A program made the position numbers and the translations under genes. A DNA stretch of 64,000 bases, taken from assembly GCF_017348835.2 (NCBI RefSeq), contig NZ_CP072315.1, one strand, 5' to 3'. This DNA comes from Escherichia coli. GTDB taxonomy: Bacteria; Pseudomonadota; Gammaproteobacteria; Enterobacterales; Enterobacteriaceae. Shown one piece after another: positions 8,442 to 50,269 of this stretch; the stretch's first letter is position 1; each line of letters begins with the position of its first letter. The notes under the pieces are model-generated. The model had not been told where the DNA came from. It worked only from the letters and a program-made list of their open reading frames with translations, and ran no database searches.

Positions 8442-8451
8442 GGAGAAACCC

Positions 8452-9579: not shown

Positions 9580-9599
9580 CTGTTTGCTTTATTAAAAAC

Positions 9600-9641
9600 C
9601 CCAGATGGGTACTTCACCATCTGGGTGAGTACCCCTTTTTT
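9600..9641 (+). terminator. Intergenic hairpin + U-tract
   Basis: CCCAGATGG-(8 nt)-CCATCTGGG stem, then ACCCC and TTTTTT, 16 nt before the ATG at 9657. Confidence 0.55.
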
Positions 9642-9656
9642 ATAAAGAGGTATTCT

Positions 9657-30300: not shown

Positions 30301-31337
30301 CCTCTCCCTCTGTTTACGTCGAAGTTAGTGTTTCCGCCATCATTGCTGAATGACAGACCTGTTTCACACCACGGGCAGATCACGTCATCCGGGCCGTCAA
30401 TGCACAGCAATTTTCCGCATGAGCACAGGGCAAACGCACTGGCATTACCGCAGTGAGGGCAACCCGGTACGCCATGCAGTTCGCTGGTGTTTACCTGCAA
30501 ACCGGTAGCGGTGGCATCTGACCATGCAAAATAGTCTTCATCGATGGGATAGCATCCGGCAATATTAAAGCTGTTCAGGTTCAGGCTGAAATCGAGCCCG
30601 GAAATCCTTGCTGGTGGCCGTTCATACTTCATCAGATACGGACGACGGGTCTTGCTGCAACGGCCGGTAAGCGTAACGCAGTTTTCGTCGTACGCTTTTA
30701 CTGGCTCGTCCTTGGCCAGCCGGACTATGTATTCAGTCTGGCTGAGCTCAGGTTGTTTGTCGTCTCCGACGCTGCGGCTGTGCGCCGTAACCGAGGCTGT
30801 GATCCATTTGATGAAGCGGGTAAAGTCCCCTTCCTGAGACTCGGTGAACAGCATGACATTCTCTGTCAGTTGCCGCAGGGTATTCAGGTCCGCTGACGGC
30901 CCCAGGCCAACGGCAATGAGATTCACTTTACTCGCGTAGTGATCCTTCCAGCGCTTCACTTCTGCGGTTGTGTCGTCAGTCGGACGTCCGTCGGTAAGGA
31001 GATACACGACGGGTTTCCAGTCGCCTTTAGCCTCATGAGTGGTTTTTCTGACCTGGGTATCAATTTGTACGGTCAGCTCACGCAATGCGGCCCCAAGGCT
31101 CGTACCGCCGCCAACGGGAAGGCGGGGAGGGTAGAACGAGGCAATTTCGTGAAGAGGTACAATCGTACGGGCTACACCGGCAAATGCGATTACCGAAACC
31201 CAGGCTGTTTCAAGTGCGTGTGGATCCTTTCTTAAATCTCCGATGATCATTTGCAGACCATCAGTCATTTTTTTCAGGTTTTCACCAATCATGGACTCTG
31301 AACAGTCCAGGACAAAAAACACGGGAAGGCGTCTCAT
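30297..31337 (-). CDS. TerY-like vWA protein with C-terminal Cys-rich zinc-ribbon region
   Basis: MRRLPVFFVLDCSESM (MIDAS DxSxS), YLLTDGRPTDD; C-terminal CPHCG...CSCGKLLC...CPWCE. ATG at 31337 with GAGGAAAA RBS; the track's upstream extension lacks an RBS. Confidence 0.75.
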   Translation of the reverse strand: MRRLPVFFVLDCSESMIGENLKKMTDGLQMIIGDLRKDPHALETAWVSVIAFAGVARTIVPLHEIASFYPPRLPVGGGTSLGAALRELTVQIDTQVRKTTHEAKGDWKPVVYLLTDGRPTDDTTAEVKRWKDHYASKVNLIAVGLGPSADLNTLRQLTENVMLFTESQEGDFTRFIKWITASVTAHSRSVGDDKQPELSQTEYIVRLAKDEPVKAYDENCVTLTGRCSKTRRPYLMKYERPPARISGLDFSLNLNSFNIAGCYPIDEDYFAWSDATATGLQVNTSELHGVPGCPHCGNASAFALCSCGKLLCIDGPDDVICPWCETGLSFSNDGGNTNFDVNRGRG

Positions 31338-31422
31338 AATTTTCCTCGTACGGCTGGTACGGCCAGCAGAAAACGTTGCTGTACAGAAAGGTGCTGCCCG
31401 GAAAGCAGCACCTTTCTGTCTG

Positions 31423-32064
31423 TCAGAGCACCAGCTGGATTTCTGGTGGAGGAGGGGGAAGGGTATCAGTTCCGTTATTGATCCCCGCGCTTGTGCTGCC
31501 GGAAGACACGCTGGCCGATACCCATTTAAAGAAACCTGCAAACGCGGTTGAATCTAGCGTCTCCAAAGACACAACCTTATCGGTGAGCTGTTTTAAGTGC
31601 TCATGGCCTGCTTTAGGACCAACGGCGCAGGCAATGATGGATCCGAATCCCCGGCCGCGAATCGCTTTTACCGCTTCACCGTACGCCAGGGCATCAGAAG
31701 GGGTTCCATCAGTCATCAGGAATACCAGAGGACGCCAGTCTCCTTTTGTATCACCATCTGAGCGACGTACATCCCGTTCAACACACTGCATCAGACATTC
31801 AAGGGCAGCACCGGTGAACGTCCCGCCTGCGCTTGGCACAACGATGTCAGAAAAGTGGAAGTCTTCCAGCGGCGTGAGAGGAATGAACTCACGCGCCTCA
31901 TTGTCATAGGTGATAATGGAGATATGAACGCTTTCGAGGGCGTAGGGATCCTGGCGAAGAGCGCTAAGCATCGCCTGAATTCCAACGTTAACGGAATGGA
32001 TGGACTCACCGCGCATCGAGCCGGATGTGTCGATAACAAGGTAAACAGGCAGGCGGCGCATCAC
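31423..32064 (-). CDS. TerY-like vWA protein
   Basis: MMRRLPVYLVIDTSGSM and FLMTDGTPSD MIDAS motifs; ATGA overlap with terX stop. Confidence 0.8.
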   Translation of the reverse strand: MMRRLPVYLVIDTSGSMRGESIHSVNVGIQAMLSALRQDPYALESVHISIITYDNEAREFIPLTPLEDFHFSDIVVPSAGGTFTGAALECLMQCVERDVRRSDGDTKGDWRPLVFLMTDGTPSDALAYGEAVKAIRGRGFGSIIACAVGPKAGHEHLKQLTDKVVSLETLDSTAFAGFFKWVSASVSSGSTSAGINNGTDTLPPPPPEIQLVL

Positions 32065-32702
32065 ATGTAATTCCTCAGGTGCGAGACAAACGAATCTGAT
32101 TCTGAAGGCTCACCAATTGCCCTGAGTTTCCAGCCTGTAGCCTCGCGTATCAGCTCGGCAAAAACCATGGAGCGCTGGCTGGCGAAGGCGGGTCCGCCAG
32201 AAAGATCGAATCGTGCCATTTCAATATTACGGGCATCTACTGCCCGGATGAAGGCATTCTGAACTTTACCAAAGTGCTGCTGGAGCTTTTCACCATTGTA
32301 GATCTGAACGATGAACACAATTTTCTCGTACTGAGCGTCAAGGGAATTCAGGCGCACAATAATTTGCTCATCGTCACCATCACCGGCTCCGGTTCGGTTA
32401 TCGCCCGTCAGCCAGATATTTCCTGACTTATGGCGAAGGCTGTTGAAAAAGATGATATCGCCATTCACAAGCGTTGGTTTACCATTTTCCACATTGCCGA
32501 GATCGGTCACCTTTCCGGCTGAATTACACAGGAAAGCGATCACATCAAGGTCGTATTCTTCTTCTTTTTTACCAAAGATCCCGCCGAGGAAACCTTTCTT
32601 TTCCTCATTAATATCCCAACCCAGGCCGATAGTAACGGACGAGAGATCGTATTCATTTTTTTTCAGGCTTACGCCCTGGCCTTTGCTCAGACTGACAGAC
32701 AT
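32061..32702 (-). CDS. terX: TerD-family protein TerX
   Basis: TerD-domain hallmarks: N-terminal SLSKGQGVSL, GLGWD, GDNRTGAGDGDDEQI; sits between TerY paralogues as in known ter loci. Confidence 0.75.
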   Translation of the reverse strand: MSVSLSKGQGVSLKKNEYDLSSVTIGLGWDINEEKKGFLGGIFGKKEEEYDLDVIAFLCNSAGKVTDLGNVENGKPTLVNGDIIFFNSLRHKSGNIWLTGDNRTGAGDGDDEQIIVRLNSLDAQYEKIVFIVQIYNGEKLQQHFGKVQNAFIRAVDARNIEMARFDLSGGPAFASQRSMVFAELIREATGWKLRAIGEPSESDSFVSHLRNYM

Positions 32703-32724
32703 GACATCCCCTTAATTAATAAAA

Positions 32725-33363
32725 TTATAAGACCACGTTTACTTCTGGCGGCGGCGGTGGCAGGTCTTCAAGACCGATCACTTCTTTTTTGCTGGACTCC
32801 ACTTTCTGACTGCCTACCGAAATGCTCGCACTGACCCATTTAAAGAAAGCTTTAATCGTCGAACTGTCAGCTGTATCGAGCTGAACCACGATTTCAGTGA
32901 TTTCTTTGAGGACGCTGGTATCGGCATCATGCCCGGCTGCACATGCCACAACAACGCCGGTTCTGGCCGCTTTAAAGTCATTCAGGCCTTTACGCCAGTC
33001 ATCATTCGGACTTCCATCCGTCATCAGGAATACAAGGGGACGCCAGTCACCTTTAGTGTCAGCCGTCGTTTTCTGTACTTCTTTGGCAATGGAGCTGGCC
33101 GTCAGGGTAAGCGCTTCGCCAAGAGAGGTGGTGCCGCTGGCTGTTAGTGCTGGCATCTGGAAACTCAGGAGGTCTGTCAGGGGGACTGCCTGTCGGGCTG
33201 AAGAATCAAAGGTGATCACTGACACGTAAGCCGTTTCGAGTGCATACGGATCCTGTTTCAGCGTGGTAAGCAGCGTCTGAACGCCATTCTTAACCGCTTC
33301 GATAGGCTCTCCGTGCATAGAGCCGGACGTGTCGAGTAGCAGATATACGGGTAAGCGTCTCAA
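32725..33363 (-). CDS. terY: TerY vWA protein (first gene of the TerY operon), TTG start
   Basis: RRLPVYLLLDTSGSM, FLMTDGSPNDD. Homology begins at a TTG (revcomp of caa 33361-33363) preceded by AAGAAGGAA RBS; the track's longer N-terminal extension is not supported. Confidence 0.75.
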   Translation of the reverse strand: MRRLPVYLLLDTSGSMHGEPIEAVKNGVQTLLTTLKQDPYALETAYVSVITFDSSARQAVPLTDLLSFQMPALTASGTTSLGEALTLTASSIAKEVQKTTADTKGDWRPLVFLMTDGSPNDDWRKGLNDFKAARTGVVVACAAGHDADTSVLKEITEIVVQLDTADSSTIKAFFKWVSASISVGSQKVESSKKEVIGLEDLPPPPPEVNVVL

Positions 33364-33825
33364 ATGTAATTCCTTCTTAAGAGATCGGAAGAGGAGAGTA
33401 GTTTCAGGAAGAGGCCAGAGTTTGTAGATTTGATAAAACGGCACGACATCTGTCGGGTGGAGATTAAATACTCAGAAGCGGCATTAAAGAAATAAGTTAA
33501 CCACCATTGAATTACCGACATGTGAATGGCCTCTTATCAGAGAAAAAAATTCAGACCGTACTGGAATATAAATTTCTGAAAAAAACTCCGGCAAAAATAA
33601 ACTTTCTTATGTATGAAAATCATCATACATCACAGATCTGCATGAATGGAGTGTAAATCGCCCAAAGATTGATGTGTAGCACAAGAGGATGTCAAGACAC
33701 CAGGTTTTGTAGGCAGAAAGGCGCTGCTGACATTGCGGGAGGAGAATAGATCAAAACTCCGTCACGCAGATACAGAGGTGAAATATGACAAAACCGGGGT
33801 TTTCACCCCGGTCTGAGATTTAGCG

Positions 33826-34293
33826 TCAGGACTTTTTAGCGCTGTATTCTTTTATCAGTTCATCAACGGAGTGCAGAGCCAGCTTCTCTACCGCTTCACT
33901 TCGGGTCGAGCCACTCAGCGCAGCCAGACGGTCAATTTTTCTTAAAATCCGCATGCGTAGCGATAATGACACGGCTGTTTTTTTATCCTTATCGAGTACG
34001 ACCTTCCCTGTGGACTCACCGGTTTTCAGTTCAGCATTCTGTGCGAGCGCTTCATTCATCCGGCGAAGGGTCTTTTTATCCAGCTGGCCCGGATTAACGA
34101 GATGGTAGGAATGACCTGCCTTGCTGTATTTGATCTCCGCAGAATATGACTCGCGTAGCTCTTTGAGTGCCCGGGTTAATGTCGGCTCTGAGCATTCCAG
34201 ACTGGTTATAATGTCGGCAGCGGAAACGGGCTTGCCGGTGCCCAGTAAGTTGGCAAGCTTAAAAATCCGGGCCTGTCTGGTATTTAATTGCAT
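33826..34293 (-). CDS. terW: TerW, winged-helix DNA-binding protein of ter loci
   Basis: 155 aa, HTH-like N-terminus (ARIFKLANLLGTGKPVSAADIITSLECSEPTLTRALKELRE); position upstream of terY matches the known terW location. Confidence 0.65.
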   Translation of the reverse strand: MQLNTRQARIFKLANLLGTGKPVSAADIITSLECSEPTLTRALKELRESYSAEIKYSKAGHSYHLVNPGQLDKKTLRRMNEALAQNAELKTGESTGKVVLDKDKKTAVSLSLRMRILRKIDRLAALSGSTRSEAVEKLALHSVDELIKEYSAKKS

Positions 34294-34310
34294 CGTAAGA
34301 TTTAGCCTGC

Positions 34311-35519
34311 TTAAAGGGTTAGTGGTTCAATAGGCTGAAAAATGAAGGTACTGCTCATCTTTCGAATAACCGGGTGATCGCCTAACGCTTCAACCGGATC
34401 AATGTGTTCTAAGCCTGCAAAATTTACTGACGACATCTGGCTGCGACTGCATTTGCAGGACAGGATATACTCATCCTCCAGATAGCCGGTCCGCTTACTG
34501 ACCCGTTGCGTAAAGCCTGACACAATCACGTTGTCGAACGGTAGCGTATGTAAAACGATACCGACCAGGCGGAACAAGCAGCCATGGACGTGGCGGGCAT
34601 AGTTTTCGCGTACGGCTTTTTGCGTCATGGCTTTTTCCGTCAGCTCCGTGCCCCGGGCATTAACGCCGTAAATCTTATCAGGGAAATCTTCAATCTCAGC
34701 TAAATCAACATCCAGCAGGACTGCTGATAGCTCCGGCTTTACTTCAAATGCAACAAGCGTTTCACGCGGCCATTCAGTTTCTGCCAGCACACCCGCCAGG
34801 TATGATTCGAAAAACGCGGCGTCTGTCCGGAACTGCTGCCGGGCATCTGCCTGAGCCGTGGCGAGCCGTTTTTCATGTTCTTCAGCCTCAAACTTCCAGT
34901 TTGCATACTGTTCGGCCCAGGCCGTCCGTTGTTGCTGGTACCGGTGCTGTCGAAGGGTATTCTCACGCTCCACATCAATCAGCTCCTGCTGCCACCGGCG
35001 AAGATTTTCGGCGTGGCGCTCAGCTTTAGCTGATTCCGATTCAAACCATTTACCCAGAAAACTAATGCCTTCGCTCTCGGCAGGCTTTTCCGGCAATGCA
35101 AGATAGTCTGGCTTTTCTGGACGCACCGGTGCCGGAACCTGAAAAGGCGACGTTCTGTTATGCAGGTATACTGCTTCCAGCTCTGCCCAGCTGATGCCTG
35201 TTTTAGGATCCGGCGTCAGCTCGTGAATATTACGGATTGCGGTCACCGCTGACATGAGATCAGCGGCTTCCTCCTCAAGCGCCTGTCTGAGCCCCGGGTC
35301 GGTAGCCGTCCGGTTCCCACCTCCGGAACGCGCGGCCCGATCAAGCCGGGTACGGTAACTCAGCCCGGTACCGGGCAAGCCCAGATTGGCATAGGTCCCC
35401 CGGCTTCCAAAAGAAACGGAAGCACCTCTCGGCCCGACACTCAGGCTCGGTGCACCGTTACTCAGGTTGAGGCGAACACCAGGAATAATGTTGATCGACT
35501 TTCTGAATCTGAACCCCAT
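34311..35519 (-). CDS. Hypothetical protein with DUF4236-like N-terminus
   Basis: N-terminal MGFRFRKSINIIPGVRLNLS typical of that uncharacterised family (recalled); coiled-coil middle; last gene of the biosynthetic operon. Confidence 0.5.
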   Translation of the reverse strand: MGFRFRKSINIIPGVRLNLSNGAPSLSVGPRGASVSFGSRGTYANLGLPGTGLSYRTRLDRAARSGGGNRTATDPGLRQALEEEAADLMSAVTAIRNIHELTPDPKTGISWAELEAVYLHNRTSPFQVPAPVRPEKPDYLALPEKPAESEGISFLGKWFESESAKAERHAENLRRWQQELIDVERENTLRQHRYQQQRTAWAEQYANWKFEAEEHEKRLATAQADARQQFRTDAAFFESYLAGVLAETEWPRETLVAFEVKPELSAVLLDVDLAEIEDFPDKIYGVNARGTELTEKAMTQKAVRENYARHVHGCLFRLVGIVLHTLPFDNVIVSGFTQRVSKRTGYLEDEYILSCKCSRSQMSSVNFAGLEHIDPVEALGDHPVIRKMSSTFIFQPIEPLTL

Positions 35520-35529
35520 TATGATTTCC

Positions 35530-36489
35530 TTAATGATGCTGGGTCACGGTAAGTAATCTGATTCCATCAGCGCTTTGCTCGTTCTGTAACCCATAAAAAC
35601 GAGCTCTGTCCAGAATGCCAGCCGCCCAGCGGCGATGTGTGGCGGGTTCACACATTGCTCCCTGCGACTTAAACACGGCCTGGGTAGAGTTCAGGATCCG
35701 CAGAGCGTCAGAATGCTCACCCTGAGTGACCATCAGCGCGTTTTGAATGACCTCTATCTGACCCGGGTGAATGGCCGTTTTCCCAACAAGCCCATGTGCC
35801 ATATCAAGAGCCAGCTCTCTGGCCATTACGGCATGATCGTCAATATGCTCACATACGGGCGCGGTCAGGGCAAAATCACGCGGGCCGAAGACCGAAACGA
35901 GCATTTTGATGACGTAGCCCATCGGGCTGTCATACAGCGTCAGGTCCCGGGGACGGCGAAGCGACACAACGTTCATAAGATCGTTGCCGCCGATTCGAAG
36001 CGCAATAATGCGGTCGTGGCAGGGATGTTCCACCAGACGGGTGGCCAGCTCCCGCATCTGAACCACGTCAAAGACGTCTTCTGTTTCCAGCGTTGGCATC
36101 ATGCACAGGTGAGTCCCGCCCATGATATCCCACCATTCAGCTAACGAACTGAGGGTAAATTTCGGCAACACAAACCCGTCGACAGCGGAAAGATCATAAT
36201 GCGCTTTTAACCATCTGCCCATTTCGGCATGCCGGGGGCGAATGAACACCAGAGGCCAGTCATTTTTACCCAGGCTATGCATGCTGTTACTGAGCTCGTG
36301 CAGCAGGTGCTCCAGATTTTTGAGGGCGACGGGGATGTCTGCTTCACTGACAGCATCCTCCAGGCAAATCACCAGAGAGCGCAAACCCGGGATTTTCCCG
36401 TGCAGGACGGCATCAGCAATATCTTCCCGTGTTGCAGGCATGTATAGCGTGGCTCCCAGATTCCAGGGAGAAAGACGATTTTTCATCAA
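35530..36489 (-). CDS. HpcH/HpaI aldolase / citrate-lyase beta (CitE)-like enzyme
   Basis: TIM-barrel lyase-like motifs (LRIGGNDL, GKTAIHPGQIEV); stop/start overlap with upstream gene. Confidence 0.7.
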   Translation of the reverse strand: MMKNRLSPWNLGATLYMPATREDIADAVLHGKIPGLRSLVICLEDAVSEADIPVALKNLEHLLHELSNSMHSLGKNDWPLVFIRPRHAEMGRWLKAHYDLSAVDGFVLPKFTLSSLAEWWDIMGGTHLCMMPTLETEDVFDVVQMRELATRLVEHPCHDRIIALRIGGNDLMNVVSLRRPRDLTLYDSPMGYVIKMLVSVFGPRDFALTAPVCEHIDDHAVMARELALDMAHGLVGKTAIHPGQIEVIQNALMVTQGEHSDALRILNSTQAVFKSQGAMCEPATHRRWAAGILDRARFYGLQNEQSADGIRLLTVTQHH

Positions 36490-37565
36490 AGTACCTTCTT
36501 GATAATGGTTACAGCCCGATACTGGCCGAGGGTTCCCCCCATTTCTGTAACAACTATTCCCTTTTCACGAGCAAGCCCTACAAGCAAGGCAACGTCCGAG
36601 TCGTCAATAGAACGCACAAATACATGGTCCGGTACCCGACGTAATACAGCCCGGGTTGCTTCAGCAATACCGGGTTTTATACGATTGACGCTGTCCACTT
36701 TAAATTCATCGGCCAGGAACGCGATAACGTCGCGACTTGTCTGCCATAAGACCCGGGCTGACTCCGTATTCCAGCTCAGGGGAGCGAGGGATGACGGGGT
36801 TAACTTCTTACGGAAATGAGCGACGGTATCGACAAGCATCCGGCTGCATTCGAATTCACTGAGATGCTCGCAAACCATGCACCCGTGTAATCCTTCAGAG
36901 GACCACACTGACCGGGAGATCAGGCCTGACACCGGCGCACCCATGATGCCAAAAGGAATGAGCCAGTCATCATCACTGGCTGCAAGCCAGGAGCAGCCAC
37001 AGGGATCGGCCAGGACAACCAGTCGCGGCTGCTCAGGATAGCCCGGGCGATCTTTCAGTGCGCGTACAAGCTCTCCGGTAATTGCGCCTTTACCTGTCCA
37101 TCCGTCAACAAAGACAATACCGCTGGTACCATGCCGCTCTTCAATGACGTCGAGGGCTGCACCGTCAATTCCACGATCCCGGATAATGCTGATACCGTAA
37201 TGCCATGAGGTTTTCCCCATGTCACGCAGGGCCTGGTGCAGCATAACGCCGAGCGGCACGCCAGCCCTGACAAGACTGGCCAGTACAATGGGCTCATCAC
37301 CAAAGCGTTTGGCCAGAGCAATAGCGAGCTGTGTGACTTCTTTTGCAAGTCTCTCTGCGCCCCGATCCAGCGCCCGGTGAAACAAATCAAGATGCCATTG
37401 TGTTGGCGCTGGCTCCTGACTGAGCATGTCCGAATAATGTTTCTTCCCTGACTGAATCAGCTCTTCTTTTTGCTCAACCGGCGTCATCTCAATGACAACC
37501 GGCTTTAGCAGAAATTCCACGTCACCGGGCTGGTATGAGCCGGTAAATGTGTCATGTGGCTGCAT
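36486..37565 (-). CDS. Ter-associated protein, phosphoribosyltransferase-like (annotated in databases, as I recall, as cysteine protease StiP family)
   Basis: VFVDGWTGKGAITG and DPCGCSWLAASDD; ATG at 37565 follows GGAG RBS and abuts the upstream stop. Family name from memory. Confidence 0.5.
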   Translation of the reverse strand: MQPHDTFTGSYQPGDVEFLLKPVVIEMTPVEQKEELIQSGKKHYSDMLSQEPAPTQWHLDLFHRALDRGAERLAKEVTQLAIALAKRFGDEPIVLASLVRAGVPLGVMLHQALRDMGKTSWHYGISIIRDRGIDGAALDVIEERHGTSGIVFVDGWTGKGAITGELVRALKDRPGYPEQPRLVVLADPCGCSWLAASDDDWLIPFGIMGAPVSGLISRSVWSSEGLHGCMVCEHLSEFECSRMLVDTVAHFRKKLTPSSLAPLSWNTESARVLWQTSRDVIAFLADEFKVDSVNRIKPGIAEATRAVLRRVPDHVFVRSIDDSDVALLVGLAREKGIVVTEMGGTLGQYRAVTIIKKVL

Positions 37566-37566
37566 T

Positions 37567-38340
37567 TTAATTTTCTCCAAAAATTCGCTGTGAAATGGCA
37601 TCTGCAAACTGACTCTGACGCGGGATGCCAAACCAGCTGCACAGTTTCATAAAACGATGATCGCTCAGGCTGTCGCCCAGGCCAATTACGGGGAAGACTC
37701 CGCGTTCAGCCCGAAGTTTTTCAAGCAGCCATCTGACTGCCAGCCCTTTCTCAACCGGGGTGGGAAGCCAGGCCACGTTATTACTGTTGCGGTGGATGTA
37801 GAAGCCCTCGGTCGGAAACACCGTTTCTATCTCATCTGCAATGGCATTAAGCTCGTCAAGGCGGGTGCTGTCGCGGTGCTTCATCACCATATAAACCGCC
37901 GTTTCACCGTATTCGAAGTTCAGCCTTGCCCAGGCATTGATCCCTTTTGCGTCCATCATTTCAGTGATCAGACGCTGCATCGATGTCAGCTTTTCCTGGT
38001 AGGGAGCCAGCTGGCCAAGCATATGGGCCTTCCACTCCTCGTCGGGTTTGCCTTCAGGCGTGAGAATGACGGCCCCGTGCGTGGTGATTGCCCAGGAGTG
38101 GAAAGGGATCCGGACGCGGCTGATTTCTTCAGTTCCCCGGGCGGTAACAGGTATGAGTTCAGCCTGCTCCAGGAGCCAGTCCACCAACATGGACTGTTCT
38201 TCCGTCATAAAGCTTCGTGGATTCAGGGTGCGATCAACGGCACCGGTACGGAATGGCTCCAGGGCCAGCTCGTCCACCATTTTACGACGGGTCTGAAAGA
38301 GCGTGTCGTCAAGGTCGCTCAGAACAACGGGTTTATTCAT
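37567..38340 (-). CDS. HAD-superfamily hydrolase
   Basis: Motif I VVLSDLDDTLF (DxD), C-terminal VIGLGDSLSD. ATG at 38340 overlaps upstream stop in the sequence ATGAATAAA. Confidence 0.7.
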   Translation of the reverse strand: MNKPVVLSDLDDTLFQTRRKMVDELALEPFRTGAVDRTLNPRSFMTEEQSMLVDWLLEQAELIPVTARGTEEISRVRIPFHSWAITTHGAVILTPEGKPDEEWKAHMLGQLAPYQEKLTSMQRLITEMMDAKGINAWARLNFEYGETAVYMVMKHRDSTRLDELNAIADEIETVFPTEGFYIHRNSNNVAWLPTPVEKGLAVRWLLEKLRAERGVFPVIGLGDSLSDHRFMKLCSWFGIPRQSQFADAISQRIFGEN

Positions 38341-39481
38341 AGGTAACAATCTCCACGACGGGCGCAACCTCAGCCAGGGCTTTAAGAAGCTGCGTGTCAA
38401 TACTTTCTGCGGGTGTCTCAGTACACACAAGAATACGGTCAAACTGCTGGTGGGCGACGTTATAGACAAAATTGGGGATGCCCAGCCCGTAGTTATCCGT
38501 AAAGGAAATGGCGGACTCAATGGCATAACCAACGGCGATAGGGGAGCGGGTGGTCGAACCATAAAGTGCCTGTGCTCCGGCAGCTTCGAGCCGTTCAGCA
38601 AGCAGGAACGGCTCCCAGACGAATTCCCCGGTCCCGAGAACCAGAATACGTTCCCCCTTGCGGACGGAGACCTCATGGCCGAGATCGGCCGCAGGTGCGA
38701 GCATCCCCAGTCGACCCCAGGACTGTTTTCCCAGGATGTCCCATTCTCCGCGTGAAGTTACGTTGACTTTCGGCATGTCCGGGACAGGTGCATCAGGTAA
38801 TGGGGTCCATCCCCACTGACCGCTTACAAGCGAAACCGAAGTGACGGGCAAGGATGTGCGCTCCGACAGGGCGTTGCTACTCCAGTCGGTAAGCGTAACG
38901 GCGATAACCTGTTCAATATGTTGAAGCTTGCCGGTATTACGCAGGGCAGAAAGCAGGTTAATAAAGGTATTACCGGTGGTTGCCTCGTCATCAATCAAAA
39001 CCAGCGTTCGTGCGTTGGTAACACGACGTCTTTTCTCTTCATCATCTGGCAGATAGATCAGATGATCGGTGGCGTGGCTGTGTTCTTCCTTGAACTCGCA
39101 AAGTAACGTGCCATCAACCGGGTGACGGGTAGAGGTCAGATAGACAGATTCACGATGCTGGTGGCGCACTTCATCAAACACACCGGCCCCTAGCCCAACG
39201 GCGGTTTCAGCCATACCGATAAAAAGTACGGGCCCTGTCAGCGTTGCGGGGAACTGGCTGGCAAGCTGTCTGTAGGCCTGCCGCATGACTGAGGGTGGCA
39301 CGGGAATGTGCCTGCCGAGTACTTTGCTGACAAACAGAAAGGCGCGTTTCGGGTTACGTCTTTCAGCGATATCAAACAGGTCATCGAGCGAAACATCACC
39401 CTGGTCGCGGGTTACCTGTATCGTACCGCATGAGAGGGTACGGCGATAAATCATATCTTCGAGGGTATCAGACATAAACAC
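38333..39481 (-). CDS. Phosphoribosyltransferase (PRTase)
   Basis: PRPP-binding loop TLVLIDDEATTGNTF. Confidence 0.75.
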   Translation of the reverse strand: MFMSDTLEDMIYRRTLSCGTIQVTRDQGDVSLDDLFDIAERRNPKRAFLFVSKVLGRHIPVPPSVMRQAYRQLASQFPATLTGPVLFIGMAETAVGLGAGVFDEVRHQHRESVYLTSTRHPVDGTLLCEFKEEHSHATDHLIYLPDDEEKRRRVTNARTLVLIDDEATTGNTFINLLSALRNTGKLQHIEQVIAVTLTDWSSNALSERTSLPVTSVSLVSGQWGWTPLPDAPVPDMPKVNVTSRGEWDILGKQSWGRLGMLAPAADLGHEVSVRKGERILVLGTGEFVWEPFLLAERLEAAGAQALYGSTTRSPIAVGYAIESAISFTDNYGLGIPNFVYNVAHQQFDRILVCTETPAESIDTQLLKALAEVAPVVEIVTYE

Positions 39482-39484
39482 GCC

Positions 39485-40543
39485 TTAATTCAGATGGTTA
39501 GAGAGTGATTCCGGGTAAACGATGACATCTGTGATGGATCTCACTGCAACCGGAGAAAAGGTATTTCTGGCGCTCTGGATCACCGCATCTTCAGACATCA
39601 GACCGAGCTTAAAGGCAGCAAACAACCCGGGAAGGTTCACCCCGCTGTGAAGGGTATAACCCACCCCGCCTGACGGACGCATGTTGGTTTCAAGCAGCAC
39701 CGGGTTGCCATTCACATCGTTTCGCGTCTGAACATTCACCAGCCCGTCGGCCTTCATAACCCGGGCGCAGTCACAAGCCAGTTCCCAGGCGCTTCCTTCG
39801 TTTACCAGATACTGGATAGCCCCTTCCTTACGGCGTCCCACGGCTGCGAGTATTTCGCCCTTATCCGCGAGGATATCGACGGAAAATTCCGGGCCTGGCA
39901 GGTACGGCATCAAAACAAGGGGTTTAAACGACTCAGAAGCCGATGCTGCTGCAATATACTGTTGCGGACTGACCAGACGATGTTCGGGATGATTAAAGAC
40001 GGCCATGGGCGAAGCACTGTCATCAAAGCGCCAGAATCCCATGCCATAGATACCCGTCACCGGCTTCACGCATACCGGGCTGTCCGAGAACGGCGGGGCC
40101 GCGAGGTGCGTCTTTAATTCTGCCAGCGTATTCACCCGCCAGGACGGTACGACCGGGAGCCCGTTTTGCTCCATAAACTGAGCAAAAGTAACTTTTTCGT
40201 CAGCCAGAGTTAACCAGTCGACGCCTGTTGCACCGGTAGTAAGGGTGGCTCCGGTCGATTCAATGGCTGAACGGTGTTCTTCAAACCACTGGCTGTTACG
40301 GCCAGTATGAATATGGTGGATGCCGTAGGTCTGAATGGTTTCCTGAATAAACTGAAGACGTTTTTGAGGATCTTCAGGTTCAGTCAAAGAATAATCGGCA
40401 ACGGAAAGAATTTCATGTCTTTCGTTACGGTGGGAGGCAAATACGGTAATAGCAAAATTATTTTTTTGTGCAAATGATTTTACCCCCTGAATAATATCTC
40501 GCTGGGAGGACAAACCTTCCATAAACCAAATTTTCTTGTTCAT
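39485..40543 (-). CDS. ATP-grasp enzyme
   Basis: ATP-grasp-like C-terminal motifs (VLLETNMRPSGG); first gene of the operon divergent from terZ. Confidence 0.7.
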   Translation of the reverse strand: MNKKIWFMEGLSSQRDIIQGVKSFAQKNNFAITVFASHRNERHEILSVADYSLTEPEDPQKRLQFIQETIQTYGIHHIHTGRNSQWFEEHRSAIESTGATLTTGATGVDWLTLADEKVTFAQFMEQNGLPVVPSWRVNTLAELKTHLAAPPFSDSPVCVKPVTGIYGMGFWRFDDSASPMAVFNHPEHRLVSPQQYIAAASASESFKPLVLMPYLPGPEFSVDILADKGEILAAVGRRKEGAIQYLVNEGSAWELACDCARVMKADGLVNVQTRNDVNGNPVLLETNMRPSGGVGYTLHSGVNLPGLFAAFKLGLMSEDAVIQSARNTFSPVAVRSITDVIVYPESLSNHLN

Positions 40544-40865
40544 TTTTTTTAATTATCCGGAACGCCATGCAAATTTATGATTGAGAAGTGAGTCTATGAG
40601 TGTCTACGCTACATGTCAATCATAATATGATTAATAACTTCAGTGGTTATGGAGTGCGTCAGTGTTTTTTTAGTGCCTTATAACGTATTGATATTTAAAT
40701 TAAAAATAGAAAAATGAACACCATGAAAAGGATTTATTTTTGTGTTTTTGAAGAAAACTACCAAAATTTCCCTTGTCAGAGAACTTCATCATGATATGAT
40801 TTTCTTCGTCAGTTACTAAATATACCTTTGATTGTCTCGGTCATTACCATTTTAAGGAATAAAAC

Positions 40866-41447
40866 ATGGTTTCATTAAGTAAGAACCAGACGGTATCACT
40901 CAGCAAAGAATCTTCAGCATTAAGCCAGCTTCAATTCGGTCTCGGTTGGGATCCGGTTAAGAAAAAAGGTCTTCTTGGAGGATTGTTTGGAGGCAACGAC
41001 TCAATCGATCTCGATGCTGGCTGCGTATTAATGGACAGCACCGGTAAAACAATTGACACCATCTGGTTCCGCAAACTGGAATCCACCTGCGGCGCTGTTG
41101 TGCACAGTGGCGATAACCTGACCGGTGAGGGTGACGGTGACGATGAGGTGATTAAGGTCAACCTCTCCCGACTGCCTGCAAACGTTGAATACCTGGCGTT
41201 TACGGTAAACAGCTTCCGTGGTCAGTCGTTCAATGACGTCGAAAACGCGTTCTGCCGCGTTGTCGATCAAACCGGCAAAGAGCTGGCTCGCTACAAGCTG
41301 ACTGAGCAGGGCTCACATACCGGGATCGTTATTTCTTCGCTGCGCCGTAATAACGGCAACTGGGACTTTACCGCCCTTGGCCATGCCTGTCGCGGCCGCA
41401 CAATTGACGATATGCACTCCGATATCGTTTCAGCGGTTATTCGCTAA
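40866..41447 (+). CDS. terZ: Tellurite resistance protein TerZ (TerD family)
   Basis: MVSLSKNQTVSLSK..., [20 protein letters not shown]; first gene of terZABCDEF. Confidence 0.85.
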   Translation: MVSLSKNQTVSLSKESSALSQLQFGLGWDPVKKKGLLGGLFGGNDSIDLDAGCVLMDSTGKTIDTIWFRKLESTCGAVVHSGDNLTGEGDGDDEVIKVNLSRLPANVEYLAFTVNSFRGQSFNDVENAFCRVVDQTGKELARYKLTEQGSHTGIVISSLRRNNGNWDFTALGHACRGRTIDDMHSDIVSAVIR

Positions 41448-42604
41448 TGAACCTGACGCCGGGGGGCAATGCCCCCGTTCCAGCCCAGGAGTTGCGGGTC
41501 CGGATCACCTCGGGCGGCCAGGTGGATGCTTCGGCGTTTCGCCTGTATGCCGACGGGAAGGTGCAGGGTGATGCGGACATGGTGTTTTATGGTCAGCCAC
41601 GTAACGATGATGGTACCGTCAGCCTGGTCAGTGAAGGCCAGTACTCAACCTTTACTGTCGCGCTCAACCGGCTGAAACCTGATGTCCAGAAAATTGCGTT
41701 CACCGTGACCTGTGACGGTGGGCAGACGGTGTCCGGTCTTCGTAATCTTTCCATCGACGTGGAGCAAGGGGCTACCGGCCTGGTTAGCGGCAGTGTCGAA
41801 CTGAGCGGCCGTCAGGAAGCAGCCTTAATTCTGGGTGAATTTTACCGTCGTAATAATGACTGGAAATTCCGCTTCGTTGCGCAGGGGTTCAACGGTGGAC
41901 TTAAACCGCTGGCAGAGCATTTCGGCGTAAATATTGCCGACGAACCGGCTCCCGCAGCCCCGACTCCTCCGGTTGTAACCCCTCCGCCAGTTGAGACAAA
42001 AATCAGCCTGAGCAAGGTATCGCTGACAAAAGAGAAGCCTGCAATCAGCCTGACCAAACGGGATAACTTCGGTGAAATCCGGATCAACCTGAACTGGCAC
42101 CGGGGCAGCGGCAAATCAGGCTTTGCAGGCATGTTCGGCTCCAAAGGAATCGACCTGGATCTGGGGGCCTTTGTTGAGCTTCAGGACGGGTATAAATCGG
42201 TCATTCAGGCGCTCGGTAATGCATTCGGTAATTATCGCGATGAACCGTATGTTCAGCTCAAGGGCGATGACCGGACGGGTGATGTATCAGACGGCGAGTG
42301 GCTGCATATCAATGGACGTGAATGGAAGCATATCCGCGAAGTGCTGATTTACGCCTTTATTTATGAAGGTGTTCCCAGCTGGGACAAGACTGATGGTGTG
42401 GTCACCATTCATGTGCCGGATCAACCGCCCATTGAGACCCGCCTGACCGAAGGTGAAAACCGTCGCACATTGTGCGCCATTGCCAGACTCGTAAACGAAA
42501 ACGGCGCAATTAAAGTCGAGCGAATTAACCAGTACTTCAAAGGCCAGGACGAAATGGACCGGGCATTTGGCTGGGGATTTCGCTGGAGCGCCGGTTCTAA
42601 ATAA
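41447..42604 (+). CDS. terA: Tellurite resistance protein TerA (TerD-domain containing)
   Basis: 385 aa, start overlapping terZ stop (TAATG); proline-rich linker PAAPTPPVVTPPPVE between TerD-like halves. Confidence 0.85.
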   Translation: MNLTPGGNAPVPAQELRVRITSGGQVDASAFRLYADGKVQGDADMVFYGQPRNDDGTVSLVSEGQYSTFTVALNRLKPDVQKIAFTVTCDGGQTVSGLRNLSIDVEQGATGLVSGSVELSGRQEAALILGEFYRRNNDWKFRFVAQGFNGGLKPLAEHFGVNIADEPAPAAPTPPVVTPPPVETKISLSKVSLTKEKPAISLTKRDNFGEIRINLNWHRGSGKSGFAGMFGSKGIDLDLGAFVELQDGYKSVIQALGNAFGNYRDEPYVQLKGDDRTGDVSDGEWLHINGREWKHIREVLIYAFIYEGVPSWDKTDGVVTIHVPDQPPIETRLTEGENRRTLCAIARLVNENGAIKVERINQYFKGQDEMDRAFGWGFRWSAGSK

Positions 42605-42626
42605 CACAGCAACAAAGGAAACAGGT

Positions 42627-43082
42627 ATGAGCTTTTTCGACAAGGTAAAAGGTGCCATTAACTCTGGCCGGGACGAACTGACCCGCCAGGTTGGTCGTTT
42701 CAAAAACAAAAAATTTATGCACGGCACCGTTGCTGTATGTGCCCGTATTGCCGTATCGAGTGACGGCGTGAGTTCGGAAGAAAAGCAGAAAATGATGGGC
42801 TTTCTTCGCTCTTCAGAAGAGCTGAAGGTCTTCGATACCAATGAGGTGATCGAGTTCTTCAATAAACTGGTTTCAAGCTTCGATTTCGATGTTGAAATCG
42901 GCAAGGGCGAAACCATGAAATACATCCTGGCGCTGAAAGATCAGCCTGAGGCCGCTCAGCTGGCCTTACGTGTTGGTATTGCCGTTGCGAAAAGTGACGG
43001 TAACTTCGATCAGGACGAGAAACTGGCCTCCCGCGAGATCGCTATCGCGTTGGGCTTCGACCCGGCTGAATTTGGCCTCTGA
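42627..43082 (+). CDS. terB: Tellurite resistance protein TerB
   Basis: 151 aa from ATG 42627 (RBS AAAGGAAACAGG); MSFFDKVKGAINSG N-terminus; track start is an RBS-less upstream extension. Confidence 0.85.
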   Translation: MSFFDKVKGAINSGRDELTRQVGRFKNKKFMHGTVAVCARIAVSSDGVSSEEKQKMMGFLRSSEELKVFDTNEVIEFFNKLVSSFDFDVEIGKGETMKYILALKDQPEAAQLALRVGIAVAKSDGNFDQDEKLASREIAIALGFDPAEFGL

Positions 43083-43104
43083 TCCACATCCCTAAGGGTA
43101 AAAT

Positions 43105-44145
43105 ATGGTTTCCACACACATCGGCTTCCCGACTGAAACGGTCATTGTTTTCATTGCGCTTTCAGTCGGTGCCATCTTTATTGACCTGTTTATGCACCGT
43201 GATGACAAGCCCATTTCCCTGAAGAGTGCGGCGCTCTGGTCCGTATTCTGGGTTGTGGTTGCGATGGCATTTGCCGGTTTCCTCTACATCCACCACGGTG
43301 CTGAGGTTGCCAGCCTGTTTGTAACGGGTTATGCGCTGGAGAAAGTGCTGTCGGTCGACAACCTGTTTGTCATGATGGCCATCTTCTCCTGGTTCGCCGT
43401 TCCTGATCGTTACCGCCACCGTGTTCTCTACTGGGGGATCATTGGTGCCATCGTCTTCAGGGGCATCTTTGTCGCCATCGGTACGAGCCTGCTGAGTCTG
43501 GGGCCGTATGTTGAAGTTGTCTTCGCTATCATCGTCGCCTGGACGGCGGTCATGATGCTTAAAAGCGGTGATGACGATGATGAAATTGAGGATTATTCCC
43601 AGCATCTGGCTTACCGCATGGTTAAACGCTTCTTCCCTATCTGGCCGAAGCTCAGAGGTCATGCTTTCCTGCTTAACCAGAAGGAAGTGGATGCCGAACT
43701 GGCGAAACCAGAAAACAGCGATGTCACCATTGGCCGTGGTAAAAAGGCGGCGCTGTATGCGACCCCTCTGTTCCTGTGTGTGGCCGTGGTTGAACTCTCG
43801 GATGTTATGTTTGCGTTTGACTCGGTACCGGCAATCATTGCCGTCAGTCGTGAACCGCTTATCGTCTATAGTGCCATGATGTTTGCTATCCTGGGCCTGC
43901 GTACTCTGTACTTTGTCCTTGAAGCACTGAAACAGTACCTGGTTCATCTGGAGAAGGCCGTTATCGTGCTGCTGTTCTTCATCGCGGCAAAACTGGGCCT
44001 GAATGCGACCGATCACATTTGGCATCATGGTTACAGCATCGCGGCGACAACCAGCCTGTATGTTGTACTGGGTGTTTTGGCGCTGGGCATTCTCGCAAGC
44101 GTCATATTCCCGGGCAAACCTGAATCTGAGGAAAAGGGGAGCTGA
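43105..44145 (+). CDS. terC: Integral membrane protein TerC
   Basis: Multi-pass membrane protein (~9 hydrophobic helices) in the canonical position. Confidence 0.9.
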   Translation: MVSTHIGFPTETVIVFIALSVGAIFIDLFMHRDDKPISLKSAALWSVFWVVVAMAFAGFLYIHHGAEVASLFVTGYALEKVLSVDNLFVMMAIFSWFAVPDRYRHRVLYWGIIGAIVFRGIFVAIGTSLLSLGPYVEVVFAIIVAWTAVMMLKSGDDDDEIEDYSQHLAYRMVKRFFPIWPKLRGHAFLLNQKEVDAELAKPENSDVTIGRGKKAALYATPLFLCVAVVELSDVMFAFDSVPAIIAVSREPLIVYSAMMFAILGLRTLYFVLEALKQYLVHLEKAVIVLLFFIAAKLGLNATDHIWHHGYSIAATTSLYVVLGVLALGILASVIFPGKPESEEKGS

Positions 44146-44193
44146 TCCCCTGAAGTGTTAACCTGAACAATTACTAATCGAAGAGGTTATTTT

Positions 44194-44772
44194 ATGAGTG
44201 TTTCTCTTTCCAAAGGCGGGAACGTCTCCCTGAGTAAAGCAGCTCCGTCAATGAAAAACGTCCTGGTGGGCCTTGGCTGGGATGCGCGTTCAACAGACGG
44301 TCAGGACTTTGACCTGGATGCTTCAGCATTCCTGCTGGCCGCAAATGGCAAAGTGCGCGGCGATTCAGATTTCATCTTCTATAACAACCTGACGTCATCT
44401 GACGGTTCCGTAACCCATACCGGTGATAACCGTACCGGTGAAGGTGATGGTGATGATGAATCGCTGAAAATTAAACTGGACGCCGTCCCGTCTGATGTTG
44501 ACAAGATCATCTTCGTTGTCACTATCCATGATGCTCAGGCTCGTCGCCAGAGCTTTGGTCAGGTATCCGGTGCGTTTATTCGCCTGGTCAATGACGATAA
44601 CCAGACTGAAGTCGCTCGCTACGATCTGACCGAAGATGCGTCCACTGAGACTGCCATGCTGTTCGGCGAGCTGTATCGCCACAATGGTGAGTGGAAATTC
44701 CGCGCAGTGGGCCAGGGTTATGCTGGTGGTCTGGCATCTGTATGTGCTCAGTACGGCATTAACGCGTCCTGA
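44194..44772 (+). CDS. terD: Tellurite resistance protein TerD
   Basis: 192 aa, [35 protein letters not shown]. Confidence 0.9.
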
Positions 44773-44839
44773 TCGAAAAGTAACTTTTCACCCGGGGCTG
44801 TTAATGCAGCCCTCATTCAACTGTTTGCAGGAGCTAAAA

Positions 44840-45415
44840 ATGGCAGTTTCTCTCGTAAAAGGCGGCAACGTATCTCTGACCAAAGAAGCACCAACCATGA
44901 ATATCGCTATGGTTGGCCTCGGCTGGGATGCCCGTGTAACTGACGGTCAGGCTTTTGACCTGGACGCTTCCGTGTTCGCAGTAGGCGAAGACGGTAAAGT
45001 GCTGTCAGATGCGCATTTCATTTTCTTCAATAACAAAACCAGCCCTGATGGCGCGGTAGAGCACCAGGGCGACAACCGTACCGGTGAAGGCGACGGTGAC
45101 GATGAGCAGGTCAAAATCGATCTGACCAAAGTCTCAGCAGATATCAAAAAACTGGTGTTTGCCGTTACCATCTATGATGCAGAAGCGCGTAAACAAAACT
45201 TCGGCATGGTGAGCAACAGCTTCATGCGCGTTTACAACAACGACAACGGCACGGAAATTGCCCGTTTCGATCTGTCTGAAGATGCCTCAACCGAAACCGC
45301 TATGGTCTTCGGTGAACTGTATCGTCATGGCGCTGAGTGGAAGTTTAAAGCTGTCGGTCAGGGCTTTGCCGGTGGCCTGGCGGCTCTTGCCTCCCAGCAC
45401 GGCGTTAACATCTAA
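44840..45415 (+). CDS. terE: Tellurite resistance protein TerE (TerD paralogue)
   Basis: 191 aa from ATG 44840 (RBS GCAGGAGC); [30 protein letters not shown]. Confidence 0.9.
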
Positions 45416-45432
45416 AACAACGCTGAATCATA

Positions 45433-45457
45433 CCCCGGCAATGCCGGGGTTTTTTTT
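45433..45457 (+). terminator. Intrinsic terminator after terE
   Basis: CCCCGGC-aat-GCCGGGG followed by an 8-T run. Confidence 0.75.
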
Positions 45458-45843
45458 GGTTGCGATCCGCTTTCAGGAGGGAGTAGTAGAAAGGGGACTG
45501 GAAATTTCAGAAAGCAGGTCATGTTAATTCAGACCTGAGCCTTTTAAAGGCAGGAAACGGATTTATCTCTGGTTGCTGGTTAAAGCCGGTATTCCGTGCC
45601 TTTTATCAACAGAATGCCCCTCTGATATATGTTACTTTTGCGGTTTATGAAGGAACGGGATCTGGAACATAAGATACCCGGTCAATCAAAATTCCAGTTC
45701 AACAGGTATAGAAACTTCAGCGTGATGAAATATGGTGTCACACCATATATACGCCTCACCAGAAATCCAGCGTCCTGAACTAAGCCTGGGGAACATATAT
45801 AAGCGCTGCGCTTTAAAAATAATCAAAAATCAGGAGAGTTAAT

Positions 45844-47085
45844 GTGAATCTACAATCCGGACAAAACATACCGCTTCAGCAATCTGCGATCAGGCTGAAT
45901 CTTCAGTACCCTGCCAAATCCGGCTTTAAAGGCGAACCCGATACCTGCCTCTTCCTGCTTAATGCTCAGGGAAAGGTAACCGGCGATTCTGACTTTATCT
46001 TTTATAATAATCTGTCTTCTCCTGAAGGGGCAGTAAAGCTCGTTACCGGTTCTCAGCAGTCCAGCATTGAGATAGCACTGGATCGTGTTCCGGCGAACGT
46101 CAGTAAGATTGCGATCACCGTTGTCATTGATGGTGAAGATACTATCAGTGGGCTCAGTTTATTGAGCATTCAGGCTCCTGGTATCGCTGATTTTCAGGCT
46201 GAGACTCAGGGCCGCAGTGAGAAAGCAATCATCCTGGGTGAAGTATATCGGCACAATGGCGCCTGGAAGCTTCGTGCGCTCGGGCAGGGTTTCAACGGTG
46301 GTCTTGAGCCTCTGGCCATTAGCTTTGGCGTTGATGTCGCACAGCCAGCTCCGCAGCCAGCAAAGCCTGCTCGTATCAGTCTGGAAAAGAAACTTGAAAC
46401 CAGATCTCCGCGCCTCGTAAGCCTCGCTAAAAAAGCCTCGGTCAGTCTCACTAAAAATAAACTGGACACCCTTGAGGCAGCGGTTGCATTTGTACTTGAC
46501 GCATCCGGCTCAATGAGTGGCCAGTTCAGTAAGGGCAACGTTCAGTCTGTGCTGGACCGCATCGCCGTTCTTGCCGCCCAGTTCGACGACGACGGTGAAA
46601 TGGATGTCTGGGGATTTGGAGAGAAGCACAAGAAGTATCCAAACGTCACACTGGACAACCTGGACACATATATTCAGTCCATTCGCGGGTCTGGAAAGCG
46701 TTCAGCCTGGGAGAACCTGCCGGGACTTGGTGGGACAAACAATGAGCCCCCTGTGATGGAAGAAATTGTCGACTACTTTAAGGACTCGAAAATCCCGGTA
46801 TATGTTGTATTTATTACCGATGGCGGGATCAGCAAGACCCGGGCGATTAAAGATGCAATCCGGCGTTCTGCCAACTACCCCATCTTCTGGAAGTTTGTCG
46901 GCCTGGGTGGTTCAAGCTACGGTATCCTCAAAAATCTGGATGACTTTACTGACCGCCGGGTTGATAACACCCACTTCTTTGCCATGGATGATTTCGGTTC
47001 GATCAGCGATGAAAAGTTATATGATAATTTACTGGAAGAATTCAGACCGTGGATCGATGAAACAAAAAGGTTAGGCATCCTGTAA
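45844..47085 (+). CDS. terF: TerF: TerD-domain + C-terminal vWA-like domain, GTG start
   Basis: N-terminal TerD-like region, C-terminal VLDASGSM and FITDGG; GTG at 45844 preceded by AGGAGA RBS; own promoter region after the terE terminator. Confidence 0.8.
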
Positions 47086-50265: not shown

Positions 50266-50269
50266 CGAT

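Follow-up and report, generated by a model that had tools for sequence, protein, structure and literature searches.

What do the enzymes encoded beside the tellurite resistance (ter) genes make, and do they act with the Ter proteins? The ter locus is carried by hundreds of IncHI2 and IncHI1B resistance plasmids, by the chromosome of Escherichia coli O157:H7 and by plasmids of hypervirulent Klebsiella, and it influences gut fitness together with resistance to phage, colicin and metals. The enzyme operon offers the clearest way into its mechanism. We analysed the copy present in a 64,000-nucleotide stretch of E. coli DNA (contig NZ_CP072315.1; the window), in which an ATP-grasp ligase, a phosphoribosyltransferase (PRTase), a HAD phosphatase, a second PRTase-like protein (StiP), a C-C bond lyase and a DUF4236 protein are encoded one after another, divergently from terZ (Table 1).

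The operon itself is not new: publications already cover its genes, their linkage to Ter and the hypothesis of a 'nucleoside-like metabolite'. It is a member of the Ter-associated biosynthetic module of Anantharaman et al. (Mol Biosyst 2012), with which it shares the same five Pfam families, whose names were taken from that system (ATPgrasp_Ter, PRTase_2/TRSP, PRTase_1, now StiP, with PELOTA_1, C-C_Bond_Lyase and HAD), the linkage to Ter genes and the enterobacterial arrangement divergent from terZ; the window copy also carries DUF4236 and terW in its unit. An earlier reading of the window sequence (the original prediction) had traced the metabolite hypothesis to comparative genomics, and later papers do credit it to Anantharaman, Iyer & Aravind 2012 (PMC8115787, PMC7824862, PMC11994780, PMC12054061). 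In this 2021-2025 literature the cluster is still 'putative biosynthetic' and of unknown function. The product was said not to be established, and that stands, as no paper identifying it was found in the literature up to mid-2026. On the evidence given below, we think it rather probable that the window operon is the Ter-associated module, probably as one seven-gene unit, and that it directs the phosphoribosyl pyrophosphate (PRPP)-dependent synthesis of a riboside acting with Ter proteins. The pathway proposed is close to the 2012 prediction, sharpened by gene fusions, fold data and a link to the structure of a 'trehalose-6-phosphate phosphatase' (TPP).

The five enzyme families and their Ter linkage

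Eighty related loci, one genome per species, were anchored on the StiP family, and their genes were identified with profiles of the window proteins. The loci represent Gamma-, Alpha-, Beta- and Deltaproteobacteria, Kuenenia (Planctomycetes), Cyanobacteria/Obscuribacterales and Magnetobacterium (Nitrospirae). HAD was present in 76 loci, PRTase_2 in 74, the lyase in 71 and ATP-grasp in 51; the order PRTase_2-HAD-StiP-lyase was almost invariant, with ATP-grasp usually first. Ter genes (TerD/TerA/TerB/TerC/TerF) lay within 10 kb of the StiP gene in 67 of the 80 loci (TerA-like in 62, TerB in 43, TerC in 39), and TerD/TerA genes adjoined the enzyme module in 62-66. The linkage to ter, first noticed in the window as divergence from terZABCDEF, is therefore a property of the module at large.

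A survey of the 150 best 50%-identity StiP representatives revealed natural fusions of StiP to PRTase_2/TRSP (19), to HAD (8), to ATP-grasp and PRTase_2 together (1, of 1055 aa) and to the lyase (1); none was fused to DUF4236 or TerW. The neighbourhoods of the fusion genes again held Ter genes. A compact metagenomic locus (L010:527-9795) encodes a TerA-like protein, the lyase, the 1055-aa ATP-grasp+PRTase_2+TRSP+StiP+PELOTA protein, HAD, a TIR-Sel1 protein and a trypsin-like protease, and looks like a defence-island context. A second compact locus encodes a TerA-like protein (4-nt overlap with the next gene), StiP+lyase, TerB and TerD. The near-invariant order, the fusions and the Ter contexts together are strong evidence, drawn from gene arrangement, that the five enzymes work together and with Ter proteins. 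The fusions define which proteins work together, and the triple fusion offers a convenient protein for reconstitution.

The enzyme assignments of the original prediction were each confirmed by Pfam/NCBIfam models, motifs, and profile or structure matches. A profile of the ATP-grasp protein matched the carbamoyl phosphate synthetase (CPS)-like structural-genomics protein 2pn1 (2e-17), CPSase, the L-amino-acid ligase BL00235 (1e-5) and, weakly, PurD among proteins in the PDB. These matches point to a carboxylate-amine ligase; K117, K160, E219, E285, N287 and R289 are invariant. In PRTase_2, the PRPP loop (D162-D163-E164..T167-G168..T170) and an ExHSHA motif are invariant in 26 sequences, and likeness of the profile to solved proteins is confined to this loop (PyrR, orotate phosphoribosyltransferase (OPRT) and PRPP synthetase; E ~1e-3). 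The lyase profile matched RipC/CitE 3qll (4.8e-17), the acyl-CoA lyase beta subunit and malyl-CoA lyases (down to 1e-8), and its invariant residues (E43-D44 and N168-D169 of the metal-binding E-D and GxxD motifs, and H240-P241-x-Q243, or IHPxQ) are those of the CitE/HpcH superfamily. Single-sequence searches of the PDB with the ATP-grasp, PRTase_2 and StiP proteins returned no relatives.

The predicted structure of StiP (predicted local distance difference test score, pLDDT, 96) resembles PRTases joined to an L7Ae/Pelota-like domain and contains the PRTase Rossmann-like core; judged from this model, the gene 4 product has a type I PRTase fold. Its invariant motif IVFVDGWTGKG (D154, G155, W156, K159) is PRPP-loop-like, but is shorter than the canonical loop of four hydrophobic and two acidic residues followed by xxxTGxT, and holds a single acidic residue. 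StiP is better treated as a candidate PRPP-dependent transferase.

HAD motifs I (DxDxT), II, III and IV (GDxxxD) are present in the gene 3 product, and D9, D11, T66, K198, G222-D223 and D227 are invariant. The window protein matched PDB entry 6D3V over its full length (E=2.7e-43, 37% identity), and a profile of module HADs matched 6D3V/6D3W/6CJ0, P. aeruginosa 'trehalose phosphatase', at E=5e-95. On the P. aeruginosa megaplasmid p12939-PER, the HAD encoded between PRTase_2 and StiP (L003:11189-11947) shares 93% identity with the crystallised protein; its gene overlaps the neighbours by 11 and 8 nt and bears the RefSeq name 'Trehalose-6-phosphatase'. According to the papers that cite Cross et al., FASEB J 2018 (PMC6838324, PMC7549927), chromosomal and extrachromosomal TPPs of P. 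aeruginosa were assayed on trehalose-6-phosphate, and the HAD ortholog is a Mg-dependent phosphatase active on this glycoside 6-phosphate. The pathway phosphatase thus already has a crystal structure and an assay, under another name. The description 'not characterised' does not quite fit the HAD.

P. aeruginosa TPPs (6CJ0/6D3V/6D3W) and gene 3 belong to the same HAD-IIB family, but the literature casts the former as trehalose-pathway enzymes and drug targets, whereas the genomic context argues for a substrate within the Ter module. No trehalose-6-phosphate synthase (OtsA-like) partner was found in the window or in the related loci, and both in the window and in 76 of 76 HAD-bearing loci the neighbours of HAD were PRTase_2 and StiP. 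Embedded in Ter modules that lack an OtsA partner, the enzyme probably acts not on trehalose-6-phosphate but on a phosphorylated product or intermediate of the module. Trehalose-6-phosphate, a glycoside with a phosphate on a primary alcohol, topologically resembles a 5'-phosphoribosyl compound, which is consistent with the module product as substrate.

A gene for a ~380-aa trypsin-like peptidase lies between ATP-grasp and PRTase_2 in 31 of the 80 loci (L003:13135-14274; L029-L045 and others), from Pseudomonas, Sphingomonas, Psychrobacter and other genera. It is absent from the window; a homolog on contig L006 carries TerD and trypsin Pfam domains. Of 50,697 phage records, only 3 contained homologs of StiP (~35% identity), among them the gut phage contig MT836648. 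In the jumbo Acinetobacter phage vB_AbaM_ME3 (209145-210206), the StiP gene adjoins a HAD gene, indicating that phages occasionally carry the module.

Extent and regulation of the transcription unit

The junctions between genes 1 to 6 measure, in turn, +9, -8, +1, -1 and +10 nt. A copy on a Klebsiella IncHI1B plasmid has only 62-83% protein identity to that of the window and saturated synonymous divergence, yet its junctions are nearly unchanged (11, -8, 1, -1, 10); the five enzymes are identical in length, and DUF4236 and TerW differ by 3-5 residues. Tight packing has been kept across this divergence far beyond chance. Because synonymous divergence (dS) from the Klebsiella copy is saturated, selection was assessed against a 96.6%-identical Citrobacter copy, and the ratio of nonsynonymous to synonymous divergence (dN/dS) was 0.06-0.13 for the four genes with enough substitutions. 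The conserved junctions and low dN/dS show that the genes are real, under purifying selection and tightly packed. We infer that they are co-transcribed and translationally coupled.

Divergence from the Citrobacter plasmid varied along the operon. The dS was 0.51 for HAD, 0.11-0.17 for ATP-grasp, PRTase_2 and StiP, and ~0.01 for the lyase, DUF4236 and terW. This mosaic indicates recombination between ter-locus variants inside the enzyme operon.

The original prediction of a six-gene operon was correct in that all six ORFs are intact, but the unit probably extends to terW. The terW gene starts 17 nt past the DUF4236 stop in the window (2 nt in Klebsiella), and a scan of this interval found no terminator-like site comparable to the strong hairpin just after terW (33814-33791). 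This spacing and the position of the hairpin suggest a seven-gene transcription unit with terW last. Membership of terW in the TerY operon was considered and rejected, because terW is set apart from terY1 by the strong terminator and by a gap of 381 nt. In all 14 loci that carry terW, it lay on the same strand after the lyase or DUF4236, with a preceding gap of 2-30 nt in seven and 142-340 nt in the other seven.

DUF4236 had been counted among the enzymes, of which there are five; it is a lineage-specific, non-enzymatic accessory. The protein comprises an N-terminal beta-meander, long helices and a C-terminal alpha/beta domain. Full-length homologs were present in 4 of the 80 related loci, with fragments in two more. 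TerW was annotated by profile in 13, nearly all from Enterobacterales, most of which have ATP-grasp-PRTase-HAD-StiP-lyase-TerW without DUF4236. Elsewhere the DUF4236 gene follows terE, beside terF, on Pseudomonas megaplasmids; follows TerD/TerC and a TerD+trypsin gene on a metagenomic contig; and in Aeromonas comes after a vWA-PP2C-kinase-Sel1-ZorA-like set, with none of the enzymes close by. When the seven proteins were scanned against PHROG and PADLOC, the results were only matches of the DUF4236 N-terminus to unannotated phage families and one weak PRPP-loop match. In Yersinia nurmii (L027), a 74-aa DUF4236-like ORF is left between the lyase gene and terW, ending 2 nt before the latter. This remnant and the 142-340-nt gaps in several other Enterobacterales suggest that the DUF4236 gene has been lost or truncated repeatedly.

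The enzyme operon and terZ are separated by 322 bp (40544-40865) containing two facing sigma-70-like promoters, in agreement with the divergent arrangement originally described. Two near-identical palindromes, ATCATAATATGAT and ATCATGATATGAT, lie at these promoters, and the window holds no other exact match to ATCATnnnATGAT; the first palindrome is kept in the intergenic regions of Klebsiella and even Marinomonas. TerW-protected palindromes have been located between the two operons, as PMC7843439 reports in citing Valkovicova 2011. The positions of ATCATAATATGAT and ATCATGATATGAT fit these published sites, and both are probably TerW operators. No match to ATCATnnnATGAT at one mismatch or fewer was found upstream of terY1, where a third TerW-type palindrome was sought. 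An 8-bp inverted repeat, ATGTATGA-n6-TCATACAT, does occur at 33609-33630, just upstream of a promoter-like site of the TerY operon (33594-33565); it is a candidate for the third site of TerW type put forward in Pectobacterium, and its sequence is unlike the two intergenic palindromes.

Table 1. Features of the ter-linked enzyme operon and its flanks (window positions).
Feature	Position	Strand	Size	Basis or remark
Ter-linked enzyme operon, six ORFs	34311-40543	-		No internal stops; agree with RefSeq gene calls on 100%-identical plasmids
Gene 1, ATP-grasp ligase ATPgrasp_Ter	39485..40543	-	352 aa	Pfam PF15632 E=2.7e-37; NCBIfam CPS-like PRK12767 1e-12
Gene 2, PRTase_2 with C-terminal TRSP	38333..39475	-	380 aa	Pfam PF15609 1.5e-63 and PF12500 5e-23; starts 9 nt past ATP-grasp stop
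Gene 3, HAD-IIB phosphatase	37567..38340	-	257 aa	NCBIfam HAD-SF-IIB; weak Pfam matches only; 8-nt overlap with gene 2
Gene 4, second PRTase-fold protein (StiP, formerly PRTase_1) with PELOTA_1/L7Ae-like domain	36486..37565	-	359 aa	Pfam 4.9e-89 and 1.4e-24
Gene 5, CitE/HpcH-superfamily TIM-barrel C-C lyase	35530..36486	-	318 aa	Pfam PF15617 (C-C_Bond_Lyase) 9.3e-114; 1 nt shared with gene 4 stop
Gene 6, DUF4236 protein	34311..35519	-	402 aa	Pfam 2.4e-21, residues 3-56 only
Gene 7, terW, helix-turn-helix (HTH) and ribbon-helix-helix-type regulator	33826..34293	-		RefSeq 'tellurium resistance protein TerW'; weak HTH/repressor-like matches
Intrinsic-terminator-like hairpin	33791..33814	-		10-bp stem, 6 G-C pairs, T-rich tail, 12 nt past terW stop
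Predicted sigma-70 promoter of enzyme operon, TTGACA-17-TAGACT	40591..40619	-		Consensus match only, 10/12; 47 nt upstream of ATP-grasp ATG
Palindrome ATCATAATATGAT (core of AATCATAATATGATT)	40619..40631	.		Abuts -35 of enzyme-operon promoter; probable TerW operator
Predicted terZ promoter, TTGTCA-16-TATGAT	40773-40800			Consensus-like site
Palindrome ATCATGATATGAT	40788..40800	.		Overlaps -10 (TATGAT) of terZ promoter; probable TerW operator
terZABCDEF operon (TerD-family, TerB, TerC, vWA-TerF)	40866..47085	+		RefSeq annotation of identical plasmid; divergent, functional partner

The possible product and competing explanations

In the pathway that we favour, a PRTase-fold protein (PRTase_2-TRSP, StiP-PELOTA or the two together) would move a 5-phosphoribosyl group from PRPP to a small acceptor. 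The CPS/PurD/L-amino-acid-ligase-like ATP-grasp enzyme would form an amide bond on the phosphoribosylated scaffold, and the CitE-like lyase would make or break a C-C bond, supplying or trimming a fragment that is carboxylic or derived from acyl-CoA. The HAD-IIB phosphatase would strip the 5'-phosphate last, leaving a free riboside ('nucleoside-like'), which would act as a ligand or signal with TerD-family, TerA and TerB proteins in protection against tellurite, phage and colicin. TerW would provide feedback by repressing both divergent promoters through the two palindromes. The substrates, the order of steps, and the identity and role of the product are all inferred.

This scheme has a parallel in the logic of de novo purine and pyrimidine synthesis (PurF and PurD; CPSase to OPRT, then 5'-nucleotidase), with its common combination of PRTase fold, ATP-grasp amide ligase and phosphatase. 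The likeness is at the superfamily level only, however, and the Ter module, which is accessory and Ter-linked, lacks an amidotransferase, a cyclase and a decarboxylase. In Pectobacterium RNA-seq data, the five-gene operon and terZABCDE were co-repressed by PhoP (PMC7843439). Tentatively, we go further and suggest that the product of the five enzymes is a compound undescribed in any organism, a riboside or ribosyl-amide, and that this compound is the long-missing ligand of TerD, TerA and TerB. Its PRPP-derived scaffold would be elongated by the ATP-grasp and CitE-like enzymes, and the 'TPP' would set it free. If so, the product would link a small-molecule signal to Ter-dependent protection from phage, colicin, tellurite and metals on IncHI plasmids and on O157 and hypervirulent Klebsiella islands.

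Several observations weigh against a riboside made by a seven-gene unit and acting with Ter proteins. The terZ-F genes alone give tellurite resistance in E. coli K-12 (PMC8115787), so that the enzyme module is dispensable for this phenotype. The sole biochemical datum for any family member is hydrolysis of trehalose-6-phosphate, not a nucleotide reaction. With its shortened PRPP loop (VDGWTGKG), StiP might not be a second transferase but a subunit that binds or regulates, and the presence of a PELOTA domain gives a hint that its partner is RNA or a ribose-phosphate polymer. A PADLOC-DB v2 scan of the enzymes and DUF4236 gave only a weak match (E ~1e-3) between the PRPP loop of PRTase_2 and a retron PRTase model. 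As to the unit, terW was induced in the Pectobacterium comparison in which the five enzyme genes and terZABCDE were repressed (PMC7843439); this opposite regulation, with the large gaps before terW in half of the loci, suggests that terW may have an additional promoter of its own.

The PELOTA domain also enters the strongest alternative, namely that the PRTase+HAD pair ribofuranosylates a macromolecule or other non-base acceptor (glycan, lipid, protein or RNA), with StiP moving ribose-5-phosphate, HAD removing the phosphate and PELOTA holding an RNA or ribose-phosphate substrate. The structural neighbours of the StiP model include the PRPP-dependent ribofuranosyltransferases 7shg and 8a0c, which are partners of a HAD phosphatase, a pairing that agrees with the natural HAD+StiP fusions and also counts in favour of the riboside pathway. 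Sequence identity between proteins of the glycan ribofuranosylation modules (7SHG; CriT/CrpP in Bcs3, 8A0C) and those of the Ter module is nevertheless only ~10%, and Ter modules differ in having no glycan-assembly genes and in possessing the extra PRTase_2, ATP-grasp, CitE-like and PELOTA components. Modification of a macromolecule is an unlikely explanation, albeit one with a structural precedent.

A slightly weaker case can be made for a product that is itself the effector, such as a nucleoside analogue with antiviral or toxic action or a metabolite that binds chalcogens or metals, and that Ter proteins would handle, export or buffer. The phenotypes of the ter locus (phage, colicin, tellurite, Zn/Mn; PMC12054061, PMC7824862), the compact locus in which the module is followed by TIR-Sel1 and trypsin-like protease genes in defence-island fashion, and the StiP homolog of phage ME3 are all consistent with such a role. 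Yet the six proteins have no PADLOC defence-model match beyond the weak PRPP-loop one, and tellurite resistance needs only terZ-F, not the module. At E<=1e-5, TerY-P and Ter proteins were likewise unmatched in PADLOC-DB v2, and the DefensePredictor study (Science 2026), in which a PRTase and a HAD are named, does not mention the Ter module. We consider a direct effector improbable.

A place for the enzymes in ordinary primary metabolism (trehalose synthesis, or pyrimidine or purine salvage), with ter as an accidental neighbour, is very improbable: despite the TPP annotation and assay of the HAD ortholog and the resemblance of the PRTase_2 PRPP loop to PyrR/OPRT, the accessory distribution of the block (956 of 5426 complete E. 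coli genomes, or 18%, on plasmids and islands) argues against such a role, as do linkage of the module to Ter genes in 67 of 80 loci, the lack of an OtsA-like partner, the synthesis of trehalose via TreYZ/TreS in P. aeruginosa (PMC7549927), and the existence of Ter-specific Pfam models for the families.

Equally hard to sustain is a proteolytic stress system with gene 4 as a true cysteine protease, for which speak the protease activity, effects on cell morphology and tellurite sensitivity ascribed to A. baylyi StiP, the product of an ortholog within the same module (L052), where PMC11994780 cites Reichert et al. 2013, the work from which the Pfam and RefSeq name comes, and the trypsin-like peptidase genes inserted in 31 of 80 modules. 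Against it, no cysteine is invariant or conserved in at least 90% of 46 diverse StiP sequences, comparison of the model with known folds matched no protease, the invariant residues form a PRPP-loop-like motif, and StiP is naturally fused to PRTase_2, HAD, ATP-grasp and the lyase. The name 'cysteine protease StiP' in RefSeq and Pfam is very probably a propagated misannotation.

Distribution and neighbouring genes

Many IncHI2-type plasmids, pAMSH1 (NZ_CP030940) among them, match positions 33500-41500 of the window at 100% identity; their hosts are E. coli, Salmonella and related bacteria. Megablast with this region matched 1376 plasmid records, and a more sensitive search, which also picks up the ~68%-identical Klebsiella copies, matched 2504. 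Identity to the E. coli O157:H7 chromosome is ~97.8%.

RefSeq annotates the minus strand of an identical plasmid, in order, as ATP-grasp, phosphoribosyltransferase-domain protein, hypothetical protein, 'cysteine protease StiP', HpcH/HpaI/citrate-lyase family protein, DUF4236 and TerW, followed after a gap by TerY/TerX/TerY/TerY-C/PP2C/kinase genes; terZABCDEF is on the plus strand. The TerY(vWA)-TerX(TerD)-TerY-TerY-C-PP2C-kinase operon, of TerY-P type, occupies 27135-33363 (minus strand) downstream of terW. In A. baylyi, a TerY-P-type set lies directly upstream of the enzyme module and is co-directional with it.

Further along the window, RefSeq annotation of the identical plasmid places an HTH/HipA toxin-antitoxin pair at 49972-51595 and a plasmid-borne Tus-like 'DNA replication terminus site-binding protein' at 21788-22750. 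An ATPase-DUF3150-vWA trio (~7025-11669) and a cytosine methyltransferase (~59843-61270) are also present.

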